Shown here one piece after another: positions 3,176 through 11,722 of a stretch of 25,122 nt of DNA. The number at the start of each line of letters is the position of its first letter. The first letter of the stretch is position 1. The position numbers and the translations under genes were made by a program. Location: positions 1 through 25,122 of the IMG/VR virus record IMGVR_UViG_3300049782_000061; one strand, given 5' to 3'. Under the pieces are notes generated by a model. That model ran no database searches, had not been told where the DNA came from, and saw only the letters and a list, made by a program, of their open reading frames with translations. This stretch comes from a virus. Its lineage: Duplodnaviria; Caudoviricetes.

Positions 3176-4237
3176 TTAGGTGAGGTCGGCGGTGGAGTTG
3201 TCGTCCCAGCCGTCTTCAATCTGGAAGTAGCCGTTCATGGAGCGGGAGTGGCGTGCCCAGCCGCCCTGGTCGGCGATGACGACGGCGTCCTTGCCCTGCT
3301 TGCGGGCAGTCGTGGCGTGGCCGATGCGGAGGCTGTGGCCGGTCCAGGCGAGTTTGACGCCGGCGCGGACGCTGATGCGTTTGATGGCGCGGGTGACGGA
3401 GTCGGGGACCATGCCCCCGGTAACAGCGTCCCAGCGGTTGATGCCGACGAACGCGGGCGCGTCCGGCTGCGACCACTTGGGGTCGGCCTCGGCGGCGAGC
3501 CGTTCCCGGTACGCCTTCCACGCCTCGACAGGGCAGATCTCTGGGTCCTTCTGGTAGAGGATTTTGGCGTCGCGGACACTGTGCTTGGTCTTGCCAGTGA
3601 GGATGGAGACGATGAGGCCGCGCGGGTGGAGGGTGACGTCCTGGGCGAGAAGCCCGGCCGGGTCCTGGGCGCGGGCGGCGTAGTGGAAGCTGGTGAGGAC
3701 GAGGGCCTTGTCGCGGGCGCCGGCGAGGGTGTCGGGGCAGGCGCGGACGACGCGGTAGAGGTCGGGGACTTGGGCGGCGGGGGCTTTGCCGCGTCCGCGG
3801 CGTTCTTTGTTCTTCAGCAGCTTGACGGCGAGGCCGTCGAGGGCTTTGCGGGCTTCGGCTTGGTCGTCGCGGGTGACGGTGACGCCGCGGCGGCGGAGTT
3901 CGACGACGGTTCCGGCGAGGATGGTGGAGGCGGAGCTGGGGGCGTAGCCGGTGCCGTTGGTCTGGCCTTGGCGGAGCATCCAGGTGACGTAGGTGACGAG
4001 CGTGCCGCGGGTGCCTTCGAGGAGGGGAAGTTTCTGGGTGGTGGTGAAGCGTTTCCAGACGCGCCAGGCTTTGGTGTAGGTGTCTTCGGTGTTTTCGGCG
4101 GCGATTTCGCGGCGGACGGCGTCGGCGAGGTCTTCGGCTTGGGCGAGGCGGTGGGCGGTGTCGATGCCGTGCCGTTCGGCCCACTTCTGGATGAGGGCGG
4201 CCCGCTCGGGCTGAACGGCGGGGAGGTGCTCGGTCAC
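3176..4237 (-). CDS. Cre-like tyrosine recombinase or resolvase
   Basis: RDKALVLTSFHYAAR (R), KTK (K), GHSLR (HxxR), QGGW (Trp as in Cre), MNGY (Tyr). Start is probably GTG 4237, overlapping the upstream stop as GTGA; ATG 4246 is the alternative. Confidence 0.9.
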   Translation of the reverse strand: MTEHLPAVQPERAALIQKWAERHGIDTAHRLAQAEDLADAVRREIAAENTEDTYTKAWRVWKRFTTTQKLPLLEGTRGTLVTYVTWMLRQGQTNGTGYAPSSASTILAGTVVELRRRGVTVTRDDQAEARKALDGLAVKLLKNKERRGRGKAPAAQVPDLYRVVRACPDTLAGARDKALVLTSFHYAARAQDPAGLLAQDVTLHPRGLIVSILTGKTKHSVRDAKILYQKDPEICPVEAWKAYRERLAAEADPKWSQPDAPAFVGINRWDAVTGGMVPDSVTRAIKRISVRAGVKLAWTGHSLRIGHATTARKQGKDAVVIADQGGWARHSRSMNGYFQIEDGWDDNSTADLT

Positions 4238-4626
4238 GGCCGCCATGCCTCGTTGTAGTCGGGGTGGCCGGAGTAGGGCAGAGCGAATGCTCTCAGAATC
4301 GTTTCGAGGGCCCAGACGCCCGTCATGTCGTCCGGCATCACGTCGTACTTCAGGTGCTCGTACTGGCGCAGCAACTCCCGTTTGGCTTCCACCTCCTCGA
4401 GGACGCGTTCGGCTTCTCCGGGGGCGCGGGTGCCGGTGCGGGTGAAGAGGGTGAGGGCATCCACAGTGTCCGGGTCACTCATGACGACGTCCATGAGCGC
4501 GAAGGCGCCCTCTGTGGCAGCGGGGGAGGCTGTTACGGCTCCGCTTTCACGGAGGCGGATGGCGGCGTGCATGAAGGAGACGTCATCGTTTAGTCGGTTG
4601 CGCAGGAACTGCACCAGGTCGTCCAC
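4234..4626 (-). CDS. DUF6221-family protein
   Basis: DDLVQFLRNRL...RVLEEVEAKR...ALPYSGHPDYNEAWRP, the typical DUF6221 termini; GAGGG RBS before GTG 4626. Confidence 0.85.
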   Translation of the reverse strand: MDDLVQFLRNRLNDDVSFMHAAIRLRESGAVTASPAATEGAFALMDVVMSDPDTVDALTLFTRTGTRAPGEAERVLEEVEAKRELLRQYEHLKYDVMPDDMTGVWALETILRAFALPYSGHPDYNEAWRP

Positions 4627-4648
4627 GGAAGCCCTCGTCCCTATGTGA

Positions 4649-4671
4649 TCGGATAAGGAGAGGTTATCCGA
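4649..4671. promoter_or_regulatory. Candidate tyrosine-recombinase core (res/lox/dif-like) site
   Basis: TCGGATAA-GGAGAGG-TTATCCGA: perfect 8-bp arms around an asymmetric 7-bp spacer, just upstream of the DUF6221-recombinase operon. Confidence 0.55.
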
Positions 4672-4703
4672 CGCGATTACTTCAGAGCGATCCTGAGCGT
4701 GGG

Positions 4704-5159
4704 CTACTCCGCCGGCTCGGGACTCGCTGTGTCGCGATTGTCGTACGCCACACCCGCCTGAAAGGAGCGCATCGCATCCACCAACTGGCCAGACGACTCC
4801 AGTGCGTCCCGCAGGTTCCGGGCACGCGACTTCGGGTCGTTGATCTGCCGGCACGTCTCGGCGTCCGCCAGGTTGGCCCACACCATCCACGCCTTGTCCA
4901 GAACCGCCGCCAGGCTGCCGGCCACTGAATCTCGGTTGATCAGGGACTCGGTCGTCAGCTCCCCGTTCGCCATCAAGGTCTGTCCTGGTGCGATCGCCGC
5001 CCAATGCCGGACTGTGTACGGCTGGTTGTCGAGGTACAGCAGCAGCGATCCGTCGTCCATCGTGATGCCGTGGGCGATGCGCCAGGGCGTGTCCTGCAAG
5101 AAGGCTTCGAGGGCGTCGCGGTCGCCAGTGAAAGTGAAGGAGGGGGCGGGAGAGGTCAT
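4704..5159 (-). CDS. Hypothetical protein
   Basis: 151-aa ORF with a GAGGA RBS before ATG 5159. Confidence 0.7.
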   Translation of the reverse strand: MTSPAPSFTFTGDRDALEAFLQDTPWRIAHGITMDDGSLLLYLDNQPYTVRHWAAIAPGQTLMANGELTTESLINRDSVAGSLAAVLDKAWMVWANLADAETCRQINDPKSRARNLRDALESSGQLVDAMRSFQAGVAYDNRDTASPEPAE

Positions 5160-5352
5160 AGCGCCATCCTCTCAGGGCGGCCCGCACGCTGGGCCCGGTG
5201 ATGGAACATTATCCAGAGCTACGAGTTCCATTGCCCGGCTCAGGTGACGCGGGACGTGCACTGACGCTGCGTCAGATTCTTCGTCAGGAGCGATTCTGCG
5301 TTCAGGCCCCTCCCAGGCTCCGGGGGGTCCGAGCTCATCTTGCAGGATCACT

Positions 5353-5402
5353 TCTTGAATGTAAGTCTTGACTTGCAGTCTTGAATGGGTAGTCTTGACC
5401 TT
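5353..5402 (+). promoter_or_regulatory. Putative array promoter (leaderless) overlapped by four TCTTGA direct repeats
   Basis: TTGACT 5368-5373, 16-nt spacer, TAGTCT 5390-5395, then ATG 5403 with no Shine-Dalgarno. TCTTGA at 5353, 5366, 5379 and 5393. Confidence 0.6.
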
Positions 5403-5705
5403 ATGAGCACCGAGAAGACCCGCCTCATCCCCACCGGCACCTGCTGGTGCGGCTGCGGCCAGGACGCCAACATCGGCAAGTTCTTCACCCAGGGCCACGA
5501 CAAGGTCGCCGAAGCCGCGCTCATGGCCGTCCGCTACGACGCATCCGTCCCCCGTCTCCTCGCGGAGCATGGGTACGGCCCCGACAACTCCGTCCGCAAC
5601 GCCGCGCTCACCGAGGGCGGTTGGAAGGAGTGCCCGCACGGATGCGGCTACGTTGGCGCACCGACCAGCGTCCGCAACCACGTTCGCAAGTACCACGAGA
5701 AGTGA
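5403..5705 (+). CDS. Array gene 1: zinc-finger protein (CWCGCG plus C2H2-like C-terminus)
   Basis: CWCGCG...GHD and CPHGCGY...H...H; ends YHEK-stop in the repeat. Confidence 0.8.
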   Translation: MSTEKTRLIPTGTCWCGCGQDANIGKFFTQGHDKVAEAALMAVRYDASVPRLLAEHGYGPDNSVRNAALTEGGWKECPHGCGYVGAPTSVRNHVRKYHEK

Positions 5706-5712
5706 GGACGCT

Positions 5713-5892
5713 ATGACCCGCGAGGAGTACGAGGAGAAGCAGCGACGGCTGGTGGCCGACGCTGAGGACGCTCGGAAGGCGTACATCCAGGCCAAAGCCG
5801 TCTACGACGGCATCTGCGACGACATGCGGAACCTGCGCCTTGAGTGGCAGGAGCAGCAGAAGTCCGCCGTCGACCGCACCATCGAGAAGTGA
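5713..5892 (+). CDS. Array gene 2: small coiled-coil protein (59 aa)
   Basis: ATG after the repeat RBS; MTREEYEEKQ...VDRTIEK-stop. Confidence 0.8.
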   Translation: MTREEYEEKQRRLVADAEDARKAYIQAKAVYDGICDDMRNLRLEWQEQQKSAVDRTIEK

Positions 5893-5903
5893 GGACACCG
5901 ACC

Positions 5904-6161
5904 ATGGCCGCTTCGAAGCCGACGAAGGCGCAGGCCGACGCGCTCGCCCTGCTCGCCAACGGCGGCGCCTACCGCAGCACCCGCGCCTTCGCCGACAAAA
6001 CCGTCCACGCGCCCGGAGGACGCATCACCGCACCCACCGCTGCCGCCCTAGTACGGCACGGCTGGGCCAAGTGGGGGCCGGAGGAGCGCCTGCGGAAGCC
6101 GCTGCTGCTGACCGACGCCGGCCGCACCCACCTGCCCGCCGACCACACCACCGAGAAGTGA
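5904..6161 (+). CDS. Array gene 3: small basic protein, possibly winged-helix-like (85 aa)
   Basis: TKAQADALALL...TAAALVRHGW...LLTDAGR pattern; ends ADHTTEK-stop. Confidence 0.8.
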   Translation: MAASKPTKAQADALALLANGGAYRSTRAFADKTVHAPGGRITAPTAAALVRHGWAKWGPEERLRKPLLLTDAGRTHLPADHTTEK

Positions 6162-6172
6162 GGACACCGACC

Positions 6173-6424
6173 GTGAGGACCGTAGCCGAAGCCCGCAGCC
6201 GCGCCGAACTTGAACGCACCCGCGCTGCAACGCCCGCAGACCACGCCTACGCACAGGGCTGGCAAGACGCCGCCGACACCCTGCCCGAGGGAGCCCACCT
6301 GCTGAAGCAGGCGCTCATCCAGACGAGTGCGGCCGCCAGTGACTCTCCGTTGGAGCAGGCGCGTGTGCACGGCATGCGGCTGGCCACTGAGTGGATCACC
6401 GCCGACCGCGCCACCGAGAAGTGA
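6173..6424 (+). CDS. Array gene 4: hypothetical helical protein (83 aa)
   Basis: GTG at the repeat start position; ends ADRATEK-stop. Confidence 0.75.
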   Translation: MRTVAEARSRAELERTRAATPADHAYAQGWQDAADTLPEGAHLLKQALIQTSAAASDSPLEQARVHGMRLATEWITADRATEK

Positions 6425-6435
6425 GGACACCAATC

Positions 6436-7332
6436 GTGGGACGCGAAGTACGCCGAGTACCGCTCGACTTCGACTGGCCGCTGAACAAGGTCTGGGAAGG
6501 ATTCCTCAGCCCCGACAAGTTCGACGAGGACGACTGCCCCGACTGCCGGAACGGCTACTCGCCGCAGGCCCAGAACCTGTACGACCTCTGGTACGGCAAG
6601 CTGCCCTTCGACCCGGCCAGCACTGGGTCCACCCCGTGGCGGCACGACTCCCCGGCCGTCCGAGCTCTCGCCGAGCGCCACGTGTCCAACGCGCCGGACT
6701 ACTACGGCACCGGCGAGGCTGCCATCCTCCGTGAGGCTCAGCGCCTGGCGGACCTGTTCAACGGGCAGTGGTCCCACCACCTGTCTCAGGAGGACGTGGA
6801 CGCGCTGGTGGCCGGTGGGCGGCTCTACGACTTCACCCATAAGGTGGTTCCAGGGCAGGGCTGGCAGAAGATCGAGCCGCCTGTGCACCCGACTGCCGAG
6901 CAGGTCAACGAGTGGTCTCTTCGCGGTATGGGCCACGACGGGATCAATGCGCATGTCGTGATCAGCGCCCGCTGCGAGCGGGAAGGCATCGAGGAGCACT
7001 GCCCCACCTGTAAGGGGCACGGCAGCATCGAGAAATACGAGGGCCAGCGCGCCGAAGCTGAGGCGTGGAAGCAGAGCGATCCTCCGCAGGGTAACGGCTG
7101 GCAGTTGTGGGAGACCCTGTCTGAGGGCTCCCCCGTCAGCCCGGTGTTTGCCACGGCCGACGAGTTGGCCGCCTGGATGTCCGATCCGGCGCGCGGCGAC
7201 CTGTGGGTGCCGCCTGCCGCTGCCGCGAAGTTCATCGCGGACGGCTGGGCGCCCAGCTTCGTCGACACCTCCAGCACCGGCATTGTGTCCGGTGTCGAAT
7301 GGGTTGGGCACCACGCCGACGACGAGAAGTGA
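6436..7332 (+). CDS. Array gene 5: hypothetical phage protein with CxxC and CxxCxGxG motifs (298 aa)
   Basis: GTG at the repeat start position; GREVRRVP, CPDC, CPTCKGHG, WQLWETLSEGSPVSPVF; ends HADDEK-stop. Confidence 0.85.
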   Translation: MGREVRRVPLDFDWPLNKVWEGFLSPDKFDEDDCPDCRNGYSPQAQNLYDLWYGKLPFDPASTGSTPWRHDSPAVRALAERHVSNAPDYYGTGEAAILREAQRLADLFNGQWSHHLSQEDVDALVAGGRLYDFTHKVVPGQGWQKIEPPVHPTAEQVNEWSLRGMGHDGINAHVVISARCEREGIEEHCPTCKGHGSIEKYEGQRAEAEAWKQSDPPQGNGWQLWETLSEGSPVSPVFATADELAAWMSDPARGDLWVPPAAAAKFIADGWAPSFVDTSSTGIVSGVEWVGHHADDEK

Positions 7333-7343
7333 GGACACCGACC

Positions 7344-7649
7344 ATGCGGAAGTACCACAGGGCTGGGGACACGGTCCTTGTCCTGGAAGGCCCGGAAAAG
7401 GGGCGAGCGCTGACTGTCTCCTCCGTCCGGATGTTCGCCACGGACAACGGCTACTACCTCCAGGGCGGCAGCGGCCTCTACTCGCCCCAGCAGGTTGAGC
7501 TGGCTGCTGAACGCGCCGACGGCAACCCGTGCGGCACCGCGTGCGACGCGCGCAAGCACAGCGTCATCGACACGTGCGACCACTGCCGGGGCACGTGCCG
7601 CTGCGCCCTGTACCGCGAACTGGCCACCGACCCCGCCACCGAGAAGTGA
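7344..7649 (+). CDS. Array gene 6: KOW/SH3-like N-terminus plus Cys-rich C-terminus (101 aa)
   Basis: AGDTVLVLEGPEKG resembles a KOW motif; six Cys in the C-terminal third; ends TDPATEK-stop. Confidence 0.78.
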   Translation: MRKYHRAGDTVLVLEGPEKGRALTVSSVRMFATDNGYYLQGGSGLYSPQQVELAAERADGNPCGTACDARKHSVIDTCDHCRGTCRCALYRELATDPATEK

Positions 7650-7660
7650 GGACACCGACC

Positions 7661-7951
7661 ATGCCGACCAGCCTGAAGGCGGCCACCGACTGCCTCCGCG
7701 CCACCCTGACCTCTGCCCAAGAAGAGCGGAAGCAGCGACCCGACCTCGTAGACGGTCCCGACGGACCCGAGCGCGCATGGGCCACCTACGAGCGCACCCG
7801 CATGCACGAAAAGGTCAACGAACTCCGCGCCGAACGTGACCTTCCGCCCGTGCCGCTCACCGACATCGTGCGCGTCGAACGGCAGGCAGCCGGCCACACC
7901 GACTACATCCTCAAGTTCGCGTTCTACTGCGCCGAACTCGCCGAGAAGTGA
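7661..7951 (+). CDS. Array gene 7: hypothetical protein (96 aa)
   Basis: ATG at the repeat start position; ends CAELAEK-stop in a half repeat. Confidence 0.8.
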   Translation: MPTSLKAATDCLRATLTSAQEERKQRPDLVDGPDGPERAWATYERTRMHEKVNELRAERDLPPVPLTDIVRVERQAAGHTDYILKFAFYCAELAEK

Positions 7952-7965
7952 AATACTAAACACCA

Positions 7966-8004
7966 CGGTGCCCCCGACCTAGGGAAAGTAGGTCGGGGGC
8001 ACCG
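7966..8004. terminator. Perfect 16-bp stem-loop closing the array, probably bidirectional
   Basis: CGGTGCCCCCGACCTA-GGGAAAG-TAGGTCGGGGGCACCG between convergent genes. Confidence 0.85.
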
Positions 8005-8023
8005 CCATGCAGCGTACCGATGC

Positions 8024-8308
8024 TCAGGTCCGCATCGTGAACGAGCCACCCGCCGCGATTTGCTCTGCGTACTGCGTCAGTTCCGGCTCCGTGATCGATC
8101 CACCCGGCGTCACCTTCGCCCACCGCTGAGTCAGCACCGGCTTGATCTCCTCCACCGGCCGCCCCCGGAACTCGCGCGACATGCCGTTCAGCATCGTCTC
8201 CAGATCGCGCGCGAGCGGACGCAGCGCCTTCGCGGCCTGCTGCTGGAGCGCGCGTTCCATCTTCCGCTGGTCACTCGCCGAGAACCTGAATCCACCGCTC
8301 TTGGCCAT
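8024..8308 (-). CDS. Hypothetical protein
   Basis: 94-aa ORF with a GGGGAGG RBS. Confidence 0.75.
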   Translation of the reverse strand: MAKSGGFRFSASDQRKMERALQQQAAKALRPLARDLETMLNGMSREFRGRPVEEIKPVLTQRWAKVTPGGSITEPELTQYAEQIAAGGSFTMRT

Positions 8309-8415
8309 GGCAGCCTCCCCTCATGCAAGGAACCGCCGCCCGTCCATGAGCCCCCTTGGCCCCCGGCAGTCCGAACTGCCTCAACGTTACCCGGGGGCAC
8401 TGACAACGCTGAGGC

Positions 8416-9000
8416 TCAGCGAGTGAGGTTTTCCGTGCGGTGGAACCCCTGCCAGGACCGGGACGCGGTCGGCCCCCGCTGCCCCTGATACCGGGACCCG
8501 CGCACCGCGCTCCCGTAGGGGAACTCCGCCGGGCCGCTCATCTGGAACACCGCCAACTGCCCGACCTTCATGCCCGGCCACAGCTTGATCGGCAGAGTCG
8601 CCAGATTCGACAGCTCCAGCGTCACATGCCCCTCGAACCCGGGGTCGATGAACCCCGCCGTGGAGTGCGTGACCAAGCCCAGGCGGCCAAGAGACGACTT
8701 CCCCTCCAGTCGCGCCGCCAGGTCGTCCGGCAGCCGCACCCGCTCGAAGGTGGACGCCAGCACGAACTCCCCCGGATGCAGCACAAACGGCTCCCCGCCG
8801 TCGACCCGAACCGGCCGACCCAGGTCGTCCTGCTCCACCGCCGGGTCGATGCACGTATGCCGGTGGTTCTCGAACACGAGGAAGTCACGGTCGAGACGGA
8901 CATCGATCGACGCCGGCTGAAGCATCGCCTCGTCGTACGGCGTCAGGCCGAGCCGGCCGCCAGATATCGCTGCATGAAGGTCTCTATCGGAAAGGAGCAC
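8416..9000 (-). CDS. dcd: dCTP deaminase
   Basis: [61 protein letters not shown]. Confidence 0.97.
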
Positions 9001-9009
9001 GTCAGAAGC

Positions 9010-9204
9010 CTAGACGCGGCCCGACGCCGCCTTCCCCTGGGCTGCTCGCCACTCCTCCAGCTCCCGCCGGCACAGCACACACAGCGGGTTCCCGCCCGGC
9101 CCGTACCGGTGCGTCGGATGCTGGCACTTCGTACACGGCCCCACGTACGACGGGGCGCACTCCGGGGCCGGCGGAACAGGTCTGTCAGAGATCGGGCTGC
9201 TCAT
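9010..9204 (-). CDS. Small Cys4 zinc-binding protein
   Basis: CTKC...HRYGPGGNPLCVLC; ATGA overlap with the RHH gene. Confidence 0.7.
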   Translation of the reverse strand: MSSPISDRPVPPAPECAPSYVGPCTKCQHPTHRYGPGGNPLCVLCRRELEEWRAAQGKAASGRV

Positions 9205-9404
9205 ACCGCAGATCCTCCCTCAGCCCGAGCGGCCGTTGCCTGCTCCCGGCGCTTCTTGCGGATCCAGTCGTGCACAGCCTCGATCAGAACGTCAGATCGC
9301 GCACGCCCCTCGGCCTTGACCAGCTCATCCAGCTCTTCCCGAAGCGCTACGGGCGGGCGGAATGAGATGGGTGGTGTTTGTCCGGTAGCCGGCCTGCCGA
9401 CCAT
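9201..9404 (-). CDS. Ribbon-helix-helix (CopG-like) regulator
   Basis: GRPATGQTPPISFRPPVALREELDELVKAEGRARSDVLIEAV; GAGGAGG RBS. Confidence 0.85.
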   Translation of the reverse strand: MVGRPATGQTPPISFRPPVALREELDELVKAEGRARSDVLIEAVHDWIRKKRREQATAARAEGGSAV

Positions 9405-9525: not shown

Positions 9526-10137
9526 ATGGGTAACCAGGTCATCAGCGTCAACGGAACCGAGACCACCCTCACCGCGGCCGGCCTCATGACCTGGACCGCC
9601 ATGGACCTCACCCTCCGCCTCCGCCCCAACATGACGTGGCGCGCCACCCGCGGCGACCTCGCCGGCCACGGCGACACCGCCCAGGCAGCCACCGACGACC
9701 TGATCGCCGCTGAGAACAAGGTCGCCAAGGTCGTGCAACTGGCCGGACGCTCCACGAAGGGCCAGAACTTCGCCCGCGAGATGCGCGCCCACCTCCGCAT
9801 CGGCCCCCGCACCCGCCGCTTCAACAGCAGGAAGTGGACTGAGGATGGCCACCGCGACGTCATGCAGGCCATCGCTGATGCCAACAACTACCCCGGCAGC
9901 ACGACCGCCGAGCGAGAGGCCATCTTCCAGACCGCCTTCGCCGCCCTCTGCTCCTGGGAGAAGCACATCCTCGGCGGACGCGCTGACGCCAGCCTCGTCG
10001 CCCACATCAACCAGATGACCCCGTACCAGTTCGTCGCGCTCATCGGCGAGATGGTCGACGCGGGCATCAGCAACGTCGGTGAGGGCGAGCAGTTCTTCGC
10101 CAACATGGCCCGCCGCTACTACGCCCAGGCCGCCTAA
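9526..10137 (+). CDS. Hypothetical protein, independent transcription unit
   Basis: 203 aa, strong codon bias, GGGGAG RBS, candidate promoter upstream and hairpin downstream. Confidence 0.85.
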   Translation: MGNQVISVNGTETTLTAAGLMTWTAMDLTLRLRPNMTWRATRGDLAGHGDTAQAATDDLIAAENKVAKVVQLAGRSTKGQNFAREMRAHLRIGPRTRRFNSRKWTEDGHRDVMQAIADANNYPGSTTAEREAIFQTAFAALCSWEKHILGGRADASLVAHINQMTPYQFVALIGEMVDAGISNVGEGEQFFANMARRYYAQAA

Positions 10138-10234: not shown

Positions 10235-11722
10235 ATGCCCGCAGAGCCCACGTTCCGCAGTGACGTCACTGTCCATCTGGTCAAGGCCACCGCCGACGAC
10301 GCCCACGTCCTCTGGTCCGCCCGCGTCTCGACCCAGGGCGAGCAGTCCTTGGACCAGATCGGGGAGGACCCTGCCCGCTCGAAAGGGCTGATCAACTACT
10401 TGATGCGGGACAGGCACGGCTCACCGTTTGAAGCGACATCCATGACGTTCTTCGTGAACGCCCCCATCTTCGTGTTCCGCGAGTTCATGCGGCACAGAGT
10501 TGGTTGGTGTATCGCCGGAGACACCCAGATCACTACCGAGTCCATCAGCGCATCCGGCACAAGGACCACGAACCTAACGCGAATCGATGCGCTGTACGAC
10601 CGGTGGCACAACGGTGTTCGCGACAGCATGGGGCGGATACGGAAGCTCCCCAGCATTTACAGGCAGAAACTCCGAGTGCTCAATGAGGGCAGCATGCTCT
10701 TTGAGCTTGGCGGCATCTCGGACGTGATCCAGTCGGGTGAGAAGGAAGTCATCACGCTGCGAACGGAGACCGGCCAGCAGTTGGAGTGCACGGCCGATCA
10801 CGCCATCTTCACCAATGAGGGCTGGGTCAAGGCCGGCGAGCTGGAAGCCGACCACCTTCTTACCGTGGTCGGGAAGCGTCCCCGGCAGGCCGGCCACCAG
10901 ATGAGTAGGAAGCTCCGCGAGGGCATCAACGAGTGGACGATGGCGCAGAAGAACACGGTGGTGAAGCCGTACGACTGCTGCTACCTGTGTGGAGCTCGTG
11001 AGGAGCGGGAGCTACTGGGGGTCGACCACGTTGTGCCTGTCGCGGCGAACCTGACGCTGGCCCTGGACGTCAAGAACCTGGCGCCGGTCTGCCGTCCGTG
11101 CCACAAGGTGAAGTCTGCGACCGAGCAGAAACTCGCCATCCGTGGGAATACCTGCGGAGGCAAGTTCGTGCGCTACGAGCGCGTCGGAAAGCCGCGAGTC
11201 ACCATGACTTACGACCTGTCAGTGGATGGTCCCTGGCACAACTTCCTTGCCAACGGAATCGTCGTGCACAACTCATACAACGAGGAGTCGGGCCGCTACC
11301 GGGAATTGGAGCCGGTCTTCTACGTCCCGAACGCCGACCGCAAGCTGGTCCAGGAGGGCAAGCCCGGCCGGTACGTCTTCGTCGAGGGCACCGCGGGCCA
11401 GCAGGAGCTCGTCGGGCGCGCCATGGAGGACTCATACCGGCAGTCCTACGAGGCGTACCAGGAGATGCTGGCGAGGGGGGTCGCGCGGGAGGTGGCCCGC
11501 TCGGTGCTCCCCGTGGGCTTGTACTCCTCGATGTACGCCACCTGCAATGCGCGGTCGCTGATGCACTTCCTCGGGCTGCGCACCACGCACCCCGACGCCA
11601 AGGTTAAAAGCTACCCGCAGCGGGAGATCGAGATGGTCGGCGAGAAGATGGAAGCGGAGTGGGCGCGGCTCATGCCCCTCACGTACGCCGCGTTCAACGC
11701 CAACGGCCGCGTCGCCCCCTGA
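10235..11722 (+). CDS. thyX: Flavin-dependent thymidylate synthase with intein
   Basis: YLMRDRHGSPFE, FREFMRHRVGW|...|SYNEESGRY, REVARSVLP, NARSLMHFLGLR, PQREI. Confidence 0.95.
   Translation: MPAEPTFRSDVTVHLVKATADDAHVLWSARVSTQGEQSLDQIGEDPARSKGLINYLMRDRHGSPFEATSMTFFVNAPIFVFREFMRHRVGWCIAGDTQITTESISASGTRTTNLTRIDALYDRWHNGVRDSMGRIRKLPSIYRQKLRVLNEGSMLFELGGISDVIQSGEKEVITLRTETGQQLECTADHAIFTNEGWVKAGELEADHLLTVVGKRPRQAGHQMSRKLREGINEWTMAQKNTVVKPYDCCYLCGAREERELLGVDHVVPVAANLTLALDVKNLAPVCRPCHKVKSATEQKLAIRGNTCGGKFVRYERVGKPRVTMTYDLSVDGPWHNFLANGIVVHNSYNEESGRYRELEPVFYVPNADRKLVQEGKPGRYVFVEGTAGQQELVGRAMEDSYRQSYEAYQEMLARGVAREVARSVLPVGLYSSMYATCNARSLMHFLGLRTTHPDAKVKSYPQREIEMVGEKMEAEWARLMPLTYAAFNANGRVAP
10508..11272 (+). 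mobile_element. Intein (255 aa) carrying an HNH endonuclease
   Basis: Starts CIAGDT; block B ECTADHAIFTNEGW; block F TYDLSV; ends VHN followed by Ser. Internal CYLC...DHVVP...NLAPVCRPCH. Confidence 0.93.

Follow-up and report, generated by a model that had tools for sequence, protein, structure and literature searches.

The DNA analysed here is the whole of virus record IMGVR_UViG_3300049782_000061 (25,122 nt, hereafter the window). Its region 5403-8004 holds an array of seven genes, g1 to g7, joined in tandem by one repeated junction that combines the stop codon of one gene with the ribosome-binding site and start codon of the next. Comparison with related elements shows that these genes are exchanged as units bounded by the junction: relatives carry different genes, and the breakpoints lie inside the repeat. 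We consider it probable, from such sequence comparisons, that the array is an accessory operon whose genes are swapped between related phages at this linker by homology-driven crossover, likely through a phage annealing protein. The sequence-only reading that preceded this analysis had proposed recombining cassettes and had named the pattern that would speak against them, namely the same genes in the same order with breakpoints outside the repeat; this pattern was looked for and is not what the relatives show.

All seven open reading frames (ORFs) are closed by CGAGAAGTGA, a 10-mer with seven copies in the window, all on the plus strand and none outside the array. The 14-base core CGAGAAGTGAGGAC has six exact matches, compared with 0.25 expected even with two mismatches allowed, and none of 100 shuffles reached six. 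Junctions 2 to 6 (5869-5906, 6138-6175, 6401-6438, 7309-7346 and 7626-7663, all on the plus strand) agree at 27-34 of 38 positions, junction 1 (5696-5715, plus strand) has the core with a short spacer, and the end of g7 (7942-7951, plus strand) retains the left half only. These five 38-mers and two partial junctions, as well as the stop-to-stop unit lengths (187, 269, 263, 908, 317 and 302 bp), are exactly as first read from the sequence. The plus-strand genes comprise the Cys/His-rich head gene g1 (5403-5705, 100 aa), the cassette genes g2 (5713-5892, 59 aa, with homologues 50-73% identical at other array positions), g3 (5904-6161, 85 aa), g4 (6173-6424, 83 aa), g5 (6436-7332, 298 aa, with two CxxC motifs) and g6 (7344-7649, 101 aa, Cys-rich in its C-terminal half), and g7 (7661-7951, 96 aa), which is last in loci L010 and L042 as well. 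Their GC content at third codon positions is 0.80-0.90. With the last eight residues removed, no similarity among them was better than E = 0.19, in agreement with the claim that the array genes are mutually unrelated. The further claim that the cassettes are promoterless holds by layout for g2 to g6, which are single genes in tandem with 11-nt gaps; it does not hold for g1, which has a candidate promoter and repeats of its own.

Exchange at the junction is seen in the comparison with L010, whose flanking genes are 95-97% identical to those of the window. In that locus, g3 is 99.3% identical over exactly 5883-6175 and has different neighbours; identity begins at 5883, inside junction 2, as it does in contigs of the metagenomic runs X6-X9, and it resumes at 7634, inside junction 6, with g7 and the terminal hairpin, so that all three ends fall inside junctions. 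Across 77 downstream and 50 upstream same-gene pairs, identity was 0.83-0.84 within the unit and 0.55 past the junction; as the pairs were picked for differing neighbours, what counts is that the identity continues as far as the junction. Among the 47 arrays retained from the scans described below (two near-duplicate arrays having been excluded), stricter pairing gave 933 of 1081 array pairs with no shared gene, 136 with one, 11 with two and one with three, and 124 of 126 adjacencies were distinct. Two of 166 same-family pairs share the next gene, a count inflated by single-linkage families, for which reason the stricter pairing was relied on instead. A homologue of g6 (74% identical) likewise stands among other neighbours in L026.

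Such exchanges also appear as joints in contigs from other soil runs (X6-X9), which are related elements rather than variants of one population. In X8, g3 is fused straight to g7 (joint 6165, in junction 3, to 7655, shorter side 255 nt), and in X6 and X7, g3 is followed by 149 other bases and then g7 (joint 6172 to 7637). In the 7.5-kb X9 contig a near-identical copy of g4 stands ahead of g3, with the joint running from 6414, in junction 4, back to 5883 over 17 shared letters (shorter side 255 nt). In the four runs that hold this array, and that are possibly its source, assembled contigs showed no joint with long sides; the joints listed there had a short side of 22-33 nt and were read as junctions of other elements. 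The proposal that genes are added, excised and reordered by recombination at the junctions is thus borne out in part. Content changes are bounded by junctions; no excision circle was seen in assembled contigs, and no terminal repeats were found in 37 metagenome loci, where contigs drop rare forms. Reordering was seen in one of 14 comparisons of arrays sharing at least two genes and in X9, and is rare: order was kept in the other 13 comparisons, the shared genes being adjacent in both arrays in only two. Crossover between colinear arrays would keep gene order in this way.

The elements that carry the junction were collected by exact pattern scans, which returned 46 and 15 viral stretches, 16 genome stretches and 37 metagenome stretches. 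All 16 genome stretches are titled Streptomyces, and eight of the 46 viral loci (six below 62% GC, plus L018 and L039) were judged to match by chance and were left out of the counts. The kept viral loci were turned into a weight matrix, which gave 227 forward hits, duplicates included and circular by construction, versus none at 546,875 opposite-strand positions, which serve as the control. The search across Streptomyces genomes and phages that the sequence-only reading had called for therefore found the junction again, in 47 arrays with mostly different small genes; automatic calling, which makes some errors, yielded 173 units with a median of 80 aa, grouped by single linkage into 29 families and 65 singletons (about 94 families). 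Within each whole element of 85-90 kb the junction is confined to one or two clusters, nearly all followed by a conserved hairpin, and the main cluster is flanked by the recombinase region on one side and by the dCTP deaminase and lysis genes on the other. In pSAM1 (NZ_CP012383.1), six junction cores lie between independently annotated genes, with a bet gene nearby and a g5 homologue.

The window carries tail, lysis, ThyX, dCTP deaminase and recombinase genes in an order common to phage ZL12 (NC_013420.1) and eight 85-90 kb relatives (G001-G008). Homologues of the tape measure gene (55% identical to ZL12), the lysin, the recombinase, g1 (44%) and 8024-8308 keep their order in ZL12, where a recombinase, a divergent small operon, a hairpin and lysis and tail genes follow one another as in the window. 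The window is a fragment of a ZL12-like Streptomyces phage from soil and likely part of a phage-plasmid, because G002, with a tape measure 95% identical to that of the window, encodes ParA/ParB; these and the plasmid replication genes were judged from relatives, their locus lying outside this 25-kb fragment. The linker reaches beyond the closest ZL12-like group, because an array is present in G008, and two GTDB contigs (L048, 394 kb; L059, 464 kb) agree. G008 itself (L116:1598-1980; L118 near 1020) shows an integrase/excisionase-type layout and a three-junction array.

What is conserved at the junction bears on its function. Among proteins ending in EK, with one seed match per array removed, junction tails keep almost always to the same codons: GAG in all 70 cases (gene bodies, 75%), ACC in 48 of 49 (63%), GCC in 28 of 29 (59%) and CGC in 36 of 38 (50%). 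Because its synonymous codons are nearly fixed, the junction is conserved at the nucleotide level, and this conservation reaches about 20 nt into the upstream gene. An unlikely explanation is that the junction is mainly a translation or regulatory signal, for coupled re-initiation or as an SAS-like protein site, and that breakpoints cluster there through the survival of gene-boundary recombinants. The core does pair with the 16S tail at nine positions (-9.5 kcal/mol); the tail sequence is present in four of five host genomes, and the mature 16S end includes the bases that pair. In addition, a long open frame ends at 125 of 128 core matches, 86 of 114 junctions have a spacer of 11 nt, the region is mosaic outside the array as well, and SAS-type motifs are known in actinophages (available parts of PMC3203893, PMC7302621). 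Against this, 35% of 438 other called ORFs pair with 16S as strongly or more strongly using other sequences, and the junction is limited to its one or two clusters. That unrelated genes share a coding tail of about 15 nt with fixed synonymous codons requires it to have been copied by recombination; terminal junctions without a start codon still have the spacer, and two intact junctions sit behind genes that stop seven codons earlier. It is highly improbable that the repeat instead encodes a C-terminal peptide tag (ADRATEK-like) by which the small proteins would be delivered to a protease, a partner or the capsid. Once seeds are removed, 67 of 82 junction-bearing ends do finish in EK, and the stop is almost always in frame, but the synonymous positions are fixed, the junction is found on 66 of 80 internal genes versus 13 of 46 last genes, one family is tailed when internal and untailed when last, and of the top 120 g5 homologues only 12 have EK at their end. 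A tag as the main function was rejected on the fixed codons and the dependence of the tail on internal position. At a junction in L003 (near oriented position 3492), the stop codon is lost, which would fuse two cassette genes.

The remaining question is which enzyme acts, and a non-integron site-specific system, in which a phage recombinase or the truncated 1154-2011 protein with a partner would cut the core at a fixed position, is quite unlikely. In its favour, the core is near-invariant: at most positions from -6 to +4 it is the same in 122-128 of 129 junctions, in part through ascertainment. The last junction of eight arrays lies 16-25 nt ahead of the hairpin without an intervening gene, like an empty site, and the two order reversals are what such an enzyme could produce. 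The tyrosine recombinase near the window's array (3176-4246, minus strand, from ATG, or to 4237 from GTG) matches PF00589 (E 8e-8); its Pfam and PHROG matches were the generic PF00589 and phrog_1, in a search with no IntI-specific profile. Recombinases at this slot in relatives are from unrelated lineages, 18-36% identical to that of the window, while the junction is constant; those of G001 and G002 are 93% identical, yet their main arrays share one family, and the second arrays of G002 and G006 lie far from any recombinase gene. The 3176-4246 enzyme was therefore rejected as a cassette integrase, and the link to it that had been considered is unlikely. The recombinase-like 1154-2011 protein (plus strand) has the first catalytic motif, GLRP, and lacks the C-terminal HxxR and invariant Tyr; five aligned copies, 66-81% identical, share the same early end. 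Its family stands beside the array in the window and in six of eight whole relatives (61-81% identical), its homologues match PF00589 weakly, and the one in pSAM1 is transcribed. It was not detected in searches of G007, G008 and ZL12, of which G007 and G008 have junctions, and a single-sequence model was unusable (pLDDT 36). Folding of four junctions on both strands gave no hairpin (z-scores of -0.86 to +1.47 versus shuffles), in line with the statement that the junction has no dyad of the attC type, and the coding tail is fused imprecisely, at varying in-frame points within one family. A gene-capture system of non-integron type, in which the 1154-2011 protein would bind the junction and steer a partner so that single genes are loaded into and unloaded from operons headed by a regulator, with the empty terminal junction as entry site, is improbable as well. 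Homology-driven crossover is favoured because annealing genes occupy one slot and their kind recombines short, diverged sequences, as described for Rad52-like phage recombinases in the available part of PMC3945230. The slot holds RecT in G001, Rad52/22 in G003, G004 and G006, and phrog_3290 in G002, G005, G007 and ZL12, and is thus filled in seven of the eight whole relatives as well as in ZL12; G009 and G010 were searched for phrog_3290 only and gave no match. Several points weigh against this preferred reading. The 25-kb fragment itself has no annealing gene, and the search of G008 gave none either, despite its three-junction array; all whole elements checked have a tyrosine recombinase no more than a few kb from the main array; and the best-resolved crossover, that of X9, is in the invariant 17-nt core, as would be expected of a site-specific enzyme too. 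The shortest homology in the same part of PMC3945230 is far longer than 17-38 nt. In addition, the array pairs counted above are phylogenetically non-independent, AAG is not significantly enriched in junction tails (67 of 70 vs 92%, p = 0.15), and mapping of crossovers by variant sharing placed no cut point, the tail following the upstream gene and the spacer neither gene. As a separate observation, the RecT, Rad52/22 and phrog_3290 annealing proteins (L082:12975-14204, L086:2218-3105, L092:3258-4223, L098:11749-12663, L108:5122-5946 and L078:19294-20544) have in common an N-terminal leader of about 20 residues, which suggests a second swap point inside that gene slot.

Crossover driven by the homology of the linker could then work as follows. 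The linker ends the upstream gene in frame, base-pairs with the tail of 16S and sets the next start mostly 11 nt past the stop, and identity between relatives begins and ends within it. Related elements in one mycelium, or misaligned sister copies during replication, would bring linkers together, and annealing of one linker to another would join the head of one array to the tail of the other, so that genes are added, dropped or replaced with their order mostly kept. Every product would have a correct stop, ribosome site and start, so that recombinants could be expressed at once, and selection for expressed products together with repeated crossover may keep the linker uniform. New genes would arrive more rarely, when their 3' end becomes fused imprecisely to the coding tail of the linker, and the head gene may repress its own promoter, setting the expression of the whole operon.

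The ends of the array are consistent with such an operon. Within 5353-5402 (plus strand), a candidate leaderless promoter, found by our own pattern search, consists of TTGACT (5368-5373) and TAGTCT (5390-5395) separated by 16 nt and ends 7 nt before the g1 ATG at 5403; a promoter scan of 5100-8100 gave no sites, this candidate being below its threshold, and the generic promoter pattern matches in just 3 of 47 arrays. Four TCTTGA repeats (5353, 5366, 5379 and 5393) overlap the candidate. Each of the 13 arrays that contain a g1 homologue has at least three YCTTGR-type repeats within 55 nt upstream, versus 0 of 34 others, and a different upstream palindrome is found in 7 of 7 arrays headed by an HTH_17-type gene versus 0 of 40 others. 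Homologues of g1 stand at or near array heads, and at the same locus in ZL12. The TCTTGA repeats are likely the g1 operator and g1 likely an autoregulator; we infer this only, because the YCTTGR repeats and the palindrome were chosen after inspecting the loci and linkage alone would yield the co-occurrence.

Farther upstream is a conserved 25-bp element (5275-5299). With up to four mismatches allowed, it recurs in 17 of 47 array loci at a variable distance of 357-2366 nt upstream of the first junction, and five of nine whole elements have one copy each. It is possibly a left homology anchor, and could also be a resolution site or part of a promoter. In some relatives it is preceded by GTTCGA repeats that, we assume, resemble the actinobacterial SOS box. 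A 103-nt contig of run X9 matches 5269-5300 (32 nt) with the same repeat-like letters on both sides; judged by the type of repeat, it looks like a CRISPR spacer against the upstream element. At the other end, the array is closed by a GC-rich hairpin of 17 pairs (7965-8005). A perfect stem of at least 11 bp lies within 1.3 kb past the last junction in 38 of 47 arrays, and in 25 of those 38, which could be aligned, two-sided changes occur at 10 of 13 pairs. The hairpin is likely a terminator and right homology anchor; an Rfam search of 4600-8500 gave no match. In L032 (5547-5599) the usual loop of the terminal hairpin is in reverse-complement orientation, as if flipped between its arms.

The cargo is mostly unannotated. 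No match was found for g1 to g7 in Pfam, PHROG or PADLOC, and among unit proteins of relatives 8 of 117 match Pfam (six helix-turn-helix (HTH)- or Phd-type, two DUF6354) and 10 of 73 match PHROGs; the Pfam matches are mostly of DNA-binding types at array heads. Homologues of the g5 protein are widespread in phages and form an uncharacterised family; of 8000 candidates scored, 1828 were homologous. Its model (pLDDT 88.9) gave no match at E <= 0.001 in PDB and BFVD with Foldseek, and its Atlas structure matches were all unnamed. For g3, a winged-helix-like fold is suggested as a lead by Atlas neighbours with TM of 0.64-0.78 (YjhX-toxin, MarR), which are below the naming bar. At the DNA level, 6668-7172 of g5 is related to sequences of two Microbacterium phages, Big4 and Zooman, and matches Caulobacter jumbo phages over short stretches (ON637770.1, OK040793.1, JX100810.1), which shows that cargo is drawn from a wide phage pool. 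Expression can be followed in pSAM1 through the available part of an RNA-seq table (PMC11302927, supplementary file 18). In HT medium, the values for its eight array genes are log2 9.1-12.7 reads per kb, which is 1.7-5.6 log2 higher than in MP24, compared with only 2.1-5.8 for eight tail-region genes; much of pSAM1 rises in HT, and the induction is not array-specific. The available part of the same source reports almost no pSAM1 DNA in virions in BM medium. In this relative the array is thus expressed in the carrier state, since its genes are transcribed with tail genes nearly silent and almost no virion DNA, which is easier to reconcile with moron-like accessory genes than with lytic host takeover. 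The suggestion of anti-defence or host-takeover cargo has no direct support from the profile and structure searches, and the pSAM1 array is transcribed with virion genes nearly silent.

Elsewhere in the window, an intein with an HNH endonuclease (Pfam Intein_splicing, HNH) lies inside ThyX at 10235-11722; it is absent from G001 and G002, both of which align on either side of the insert. Just before thyX, an Arc/ribbon-helix-helix-type repressor gene (9201-9404) is divergent from an uncharacterised gene of 203 aa (9526-10137), and the pair is possibly another swappable, regulator-headed unit.

Integrons are tandem promoterless gene cassettes with one upstream promoter, foldable attC sites and an IntI integrase. 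The array is like them in its candidate upstream promoter, its tandem promoterless genes (g2 to g6, by layout), its variable content and a nearby tyrosine recombinase. It differs in that the junction overlaps coding sequence and does not fold into a palindrome of the attC kind, the nearby recombinase differs between elements with the same junction, and order is mostly kept; integron membership was rejected, as there is neither an attC-type fold nor a conserved linked integrase. A closer likeness is found in the PeSL elements of T4-type phages, each a promoter plus terminator hairpin, for which mini-circles were shown and whose authors, in the available parts of PMC2839356 and PMC4122927, propose homologous recombination and compare the cassettes with integrons. 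In both systems a short conserved repeat lies in a variable region of small uncharacterised genes, and the breakpoints of insertions, deletions and replacements fall in the repeat. In contrast, each PeSL cassette is its own transcription unit, whereas the linker here is inside one operon, contains coding sequence of the upstream gene, shows no fold and no promoter-like site by the scan of 5100-8100, and has one hairpin per array rather than one per repeat. It also occurs in temperate Streptomyces phages and is known here from assembled contigs, in which no circle was seen. Lacking a promoter or hairpin, the junction falls outside the PeSL definition. The principle has its precedent in PeSL shuffling, with a translation-coupling sequence as the linker here.

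In the Botstein-Campbell module model and the repeats of the T-even IP locus, as far as PMC2839356 summarises them, linkers place exchanged modules correctly, and conserved linker homology positions the modules as it does here. The difference is that the array repeats one linker from gene to gene, so that the number of genes is altered and not just the allele, and that this linker carries translation signals. The SAS motif of cluster K mycobacteriophages and cluster EF Microbacterium phages is 13 bp, spread over many genes and proposed to be regulatory (PMC3203893 and PMC7302621, in the passages available). SAS and ESAS resemble the junction as conserved asymmetric motifs at the ribosome-binding position of non-structural actinophage genes. 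The junction differs in including the upstream stop and coding tail and in marking exchange points; SAS membership was rejected on its restriction to one or two tandem clusters per element and its conservation some 20 nt into the upstream gene. Phage ZL12 differs in having a two-gene operon at the locus, where no junction scores; one weak junction lies elsewhere in ZL12, and the repeat goes unmentioned in the available passages on ZL12/pZL12 (PMC4487206, 10.1101/2020.11.09.375378). A literature search, mostly without subscription papers, found no paper on the stop-start junction, which does not establish its absence from print.

Mosaicism in actinophages is usually ascribed to illegitimate recombination at gene boundaries. 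The PeSL precedent limits the surprise of junction-based shuffling, and the array illustrates with unusual clarity, in a natural setting, the linker model of modular evolution in phages, in which one short sequence would give both the homology for exchange and guaranteed translation of the product. The defined site of 17-38 nt makes the enzyme question directly testable. Additionally, the junction serves as a search handle: in 47 arrays it delimits about 94 small-protein families, most of them unannotated, and these proteins are a ready library for defence, anti-defence and host-modulation screens in Streptomyces.

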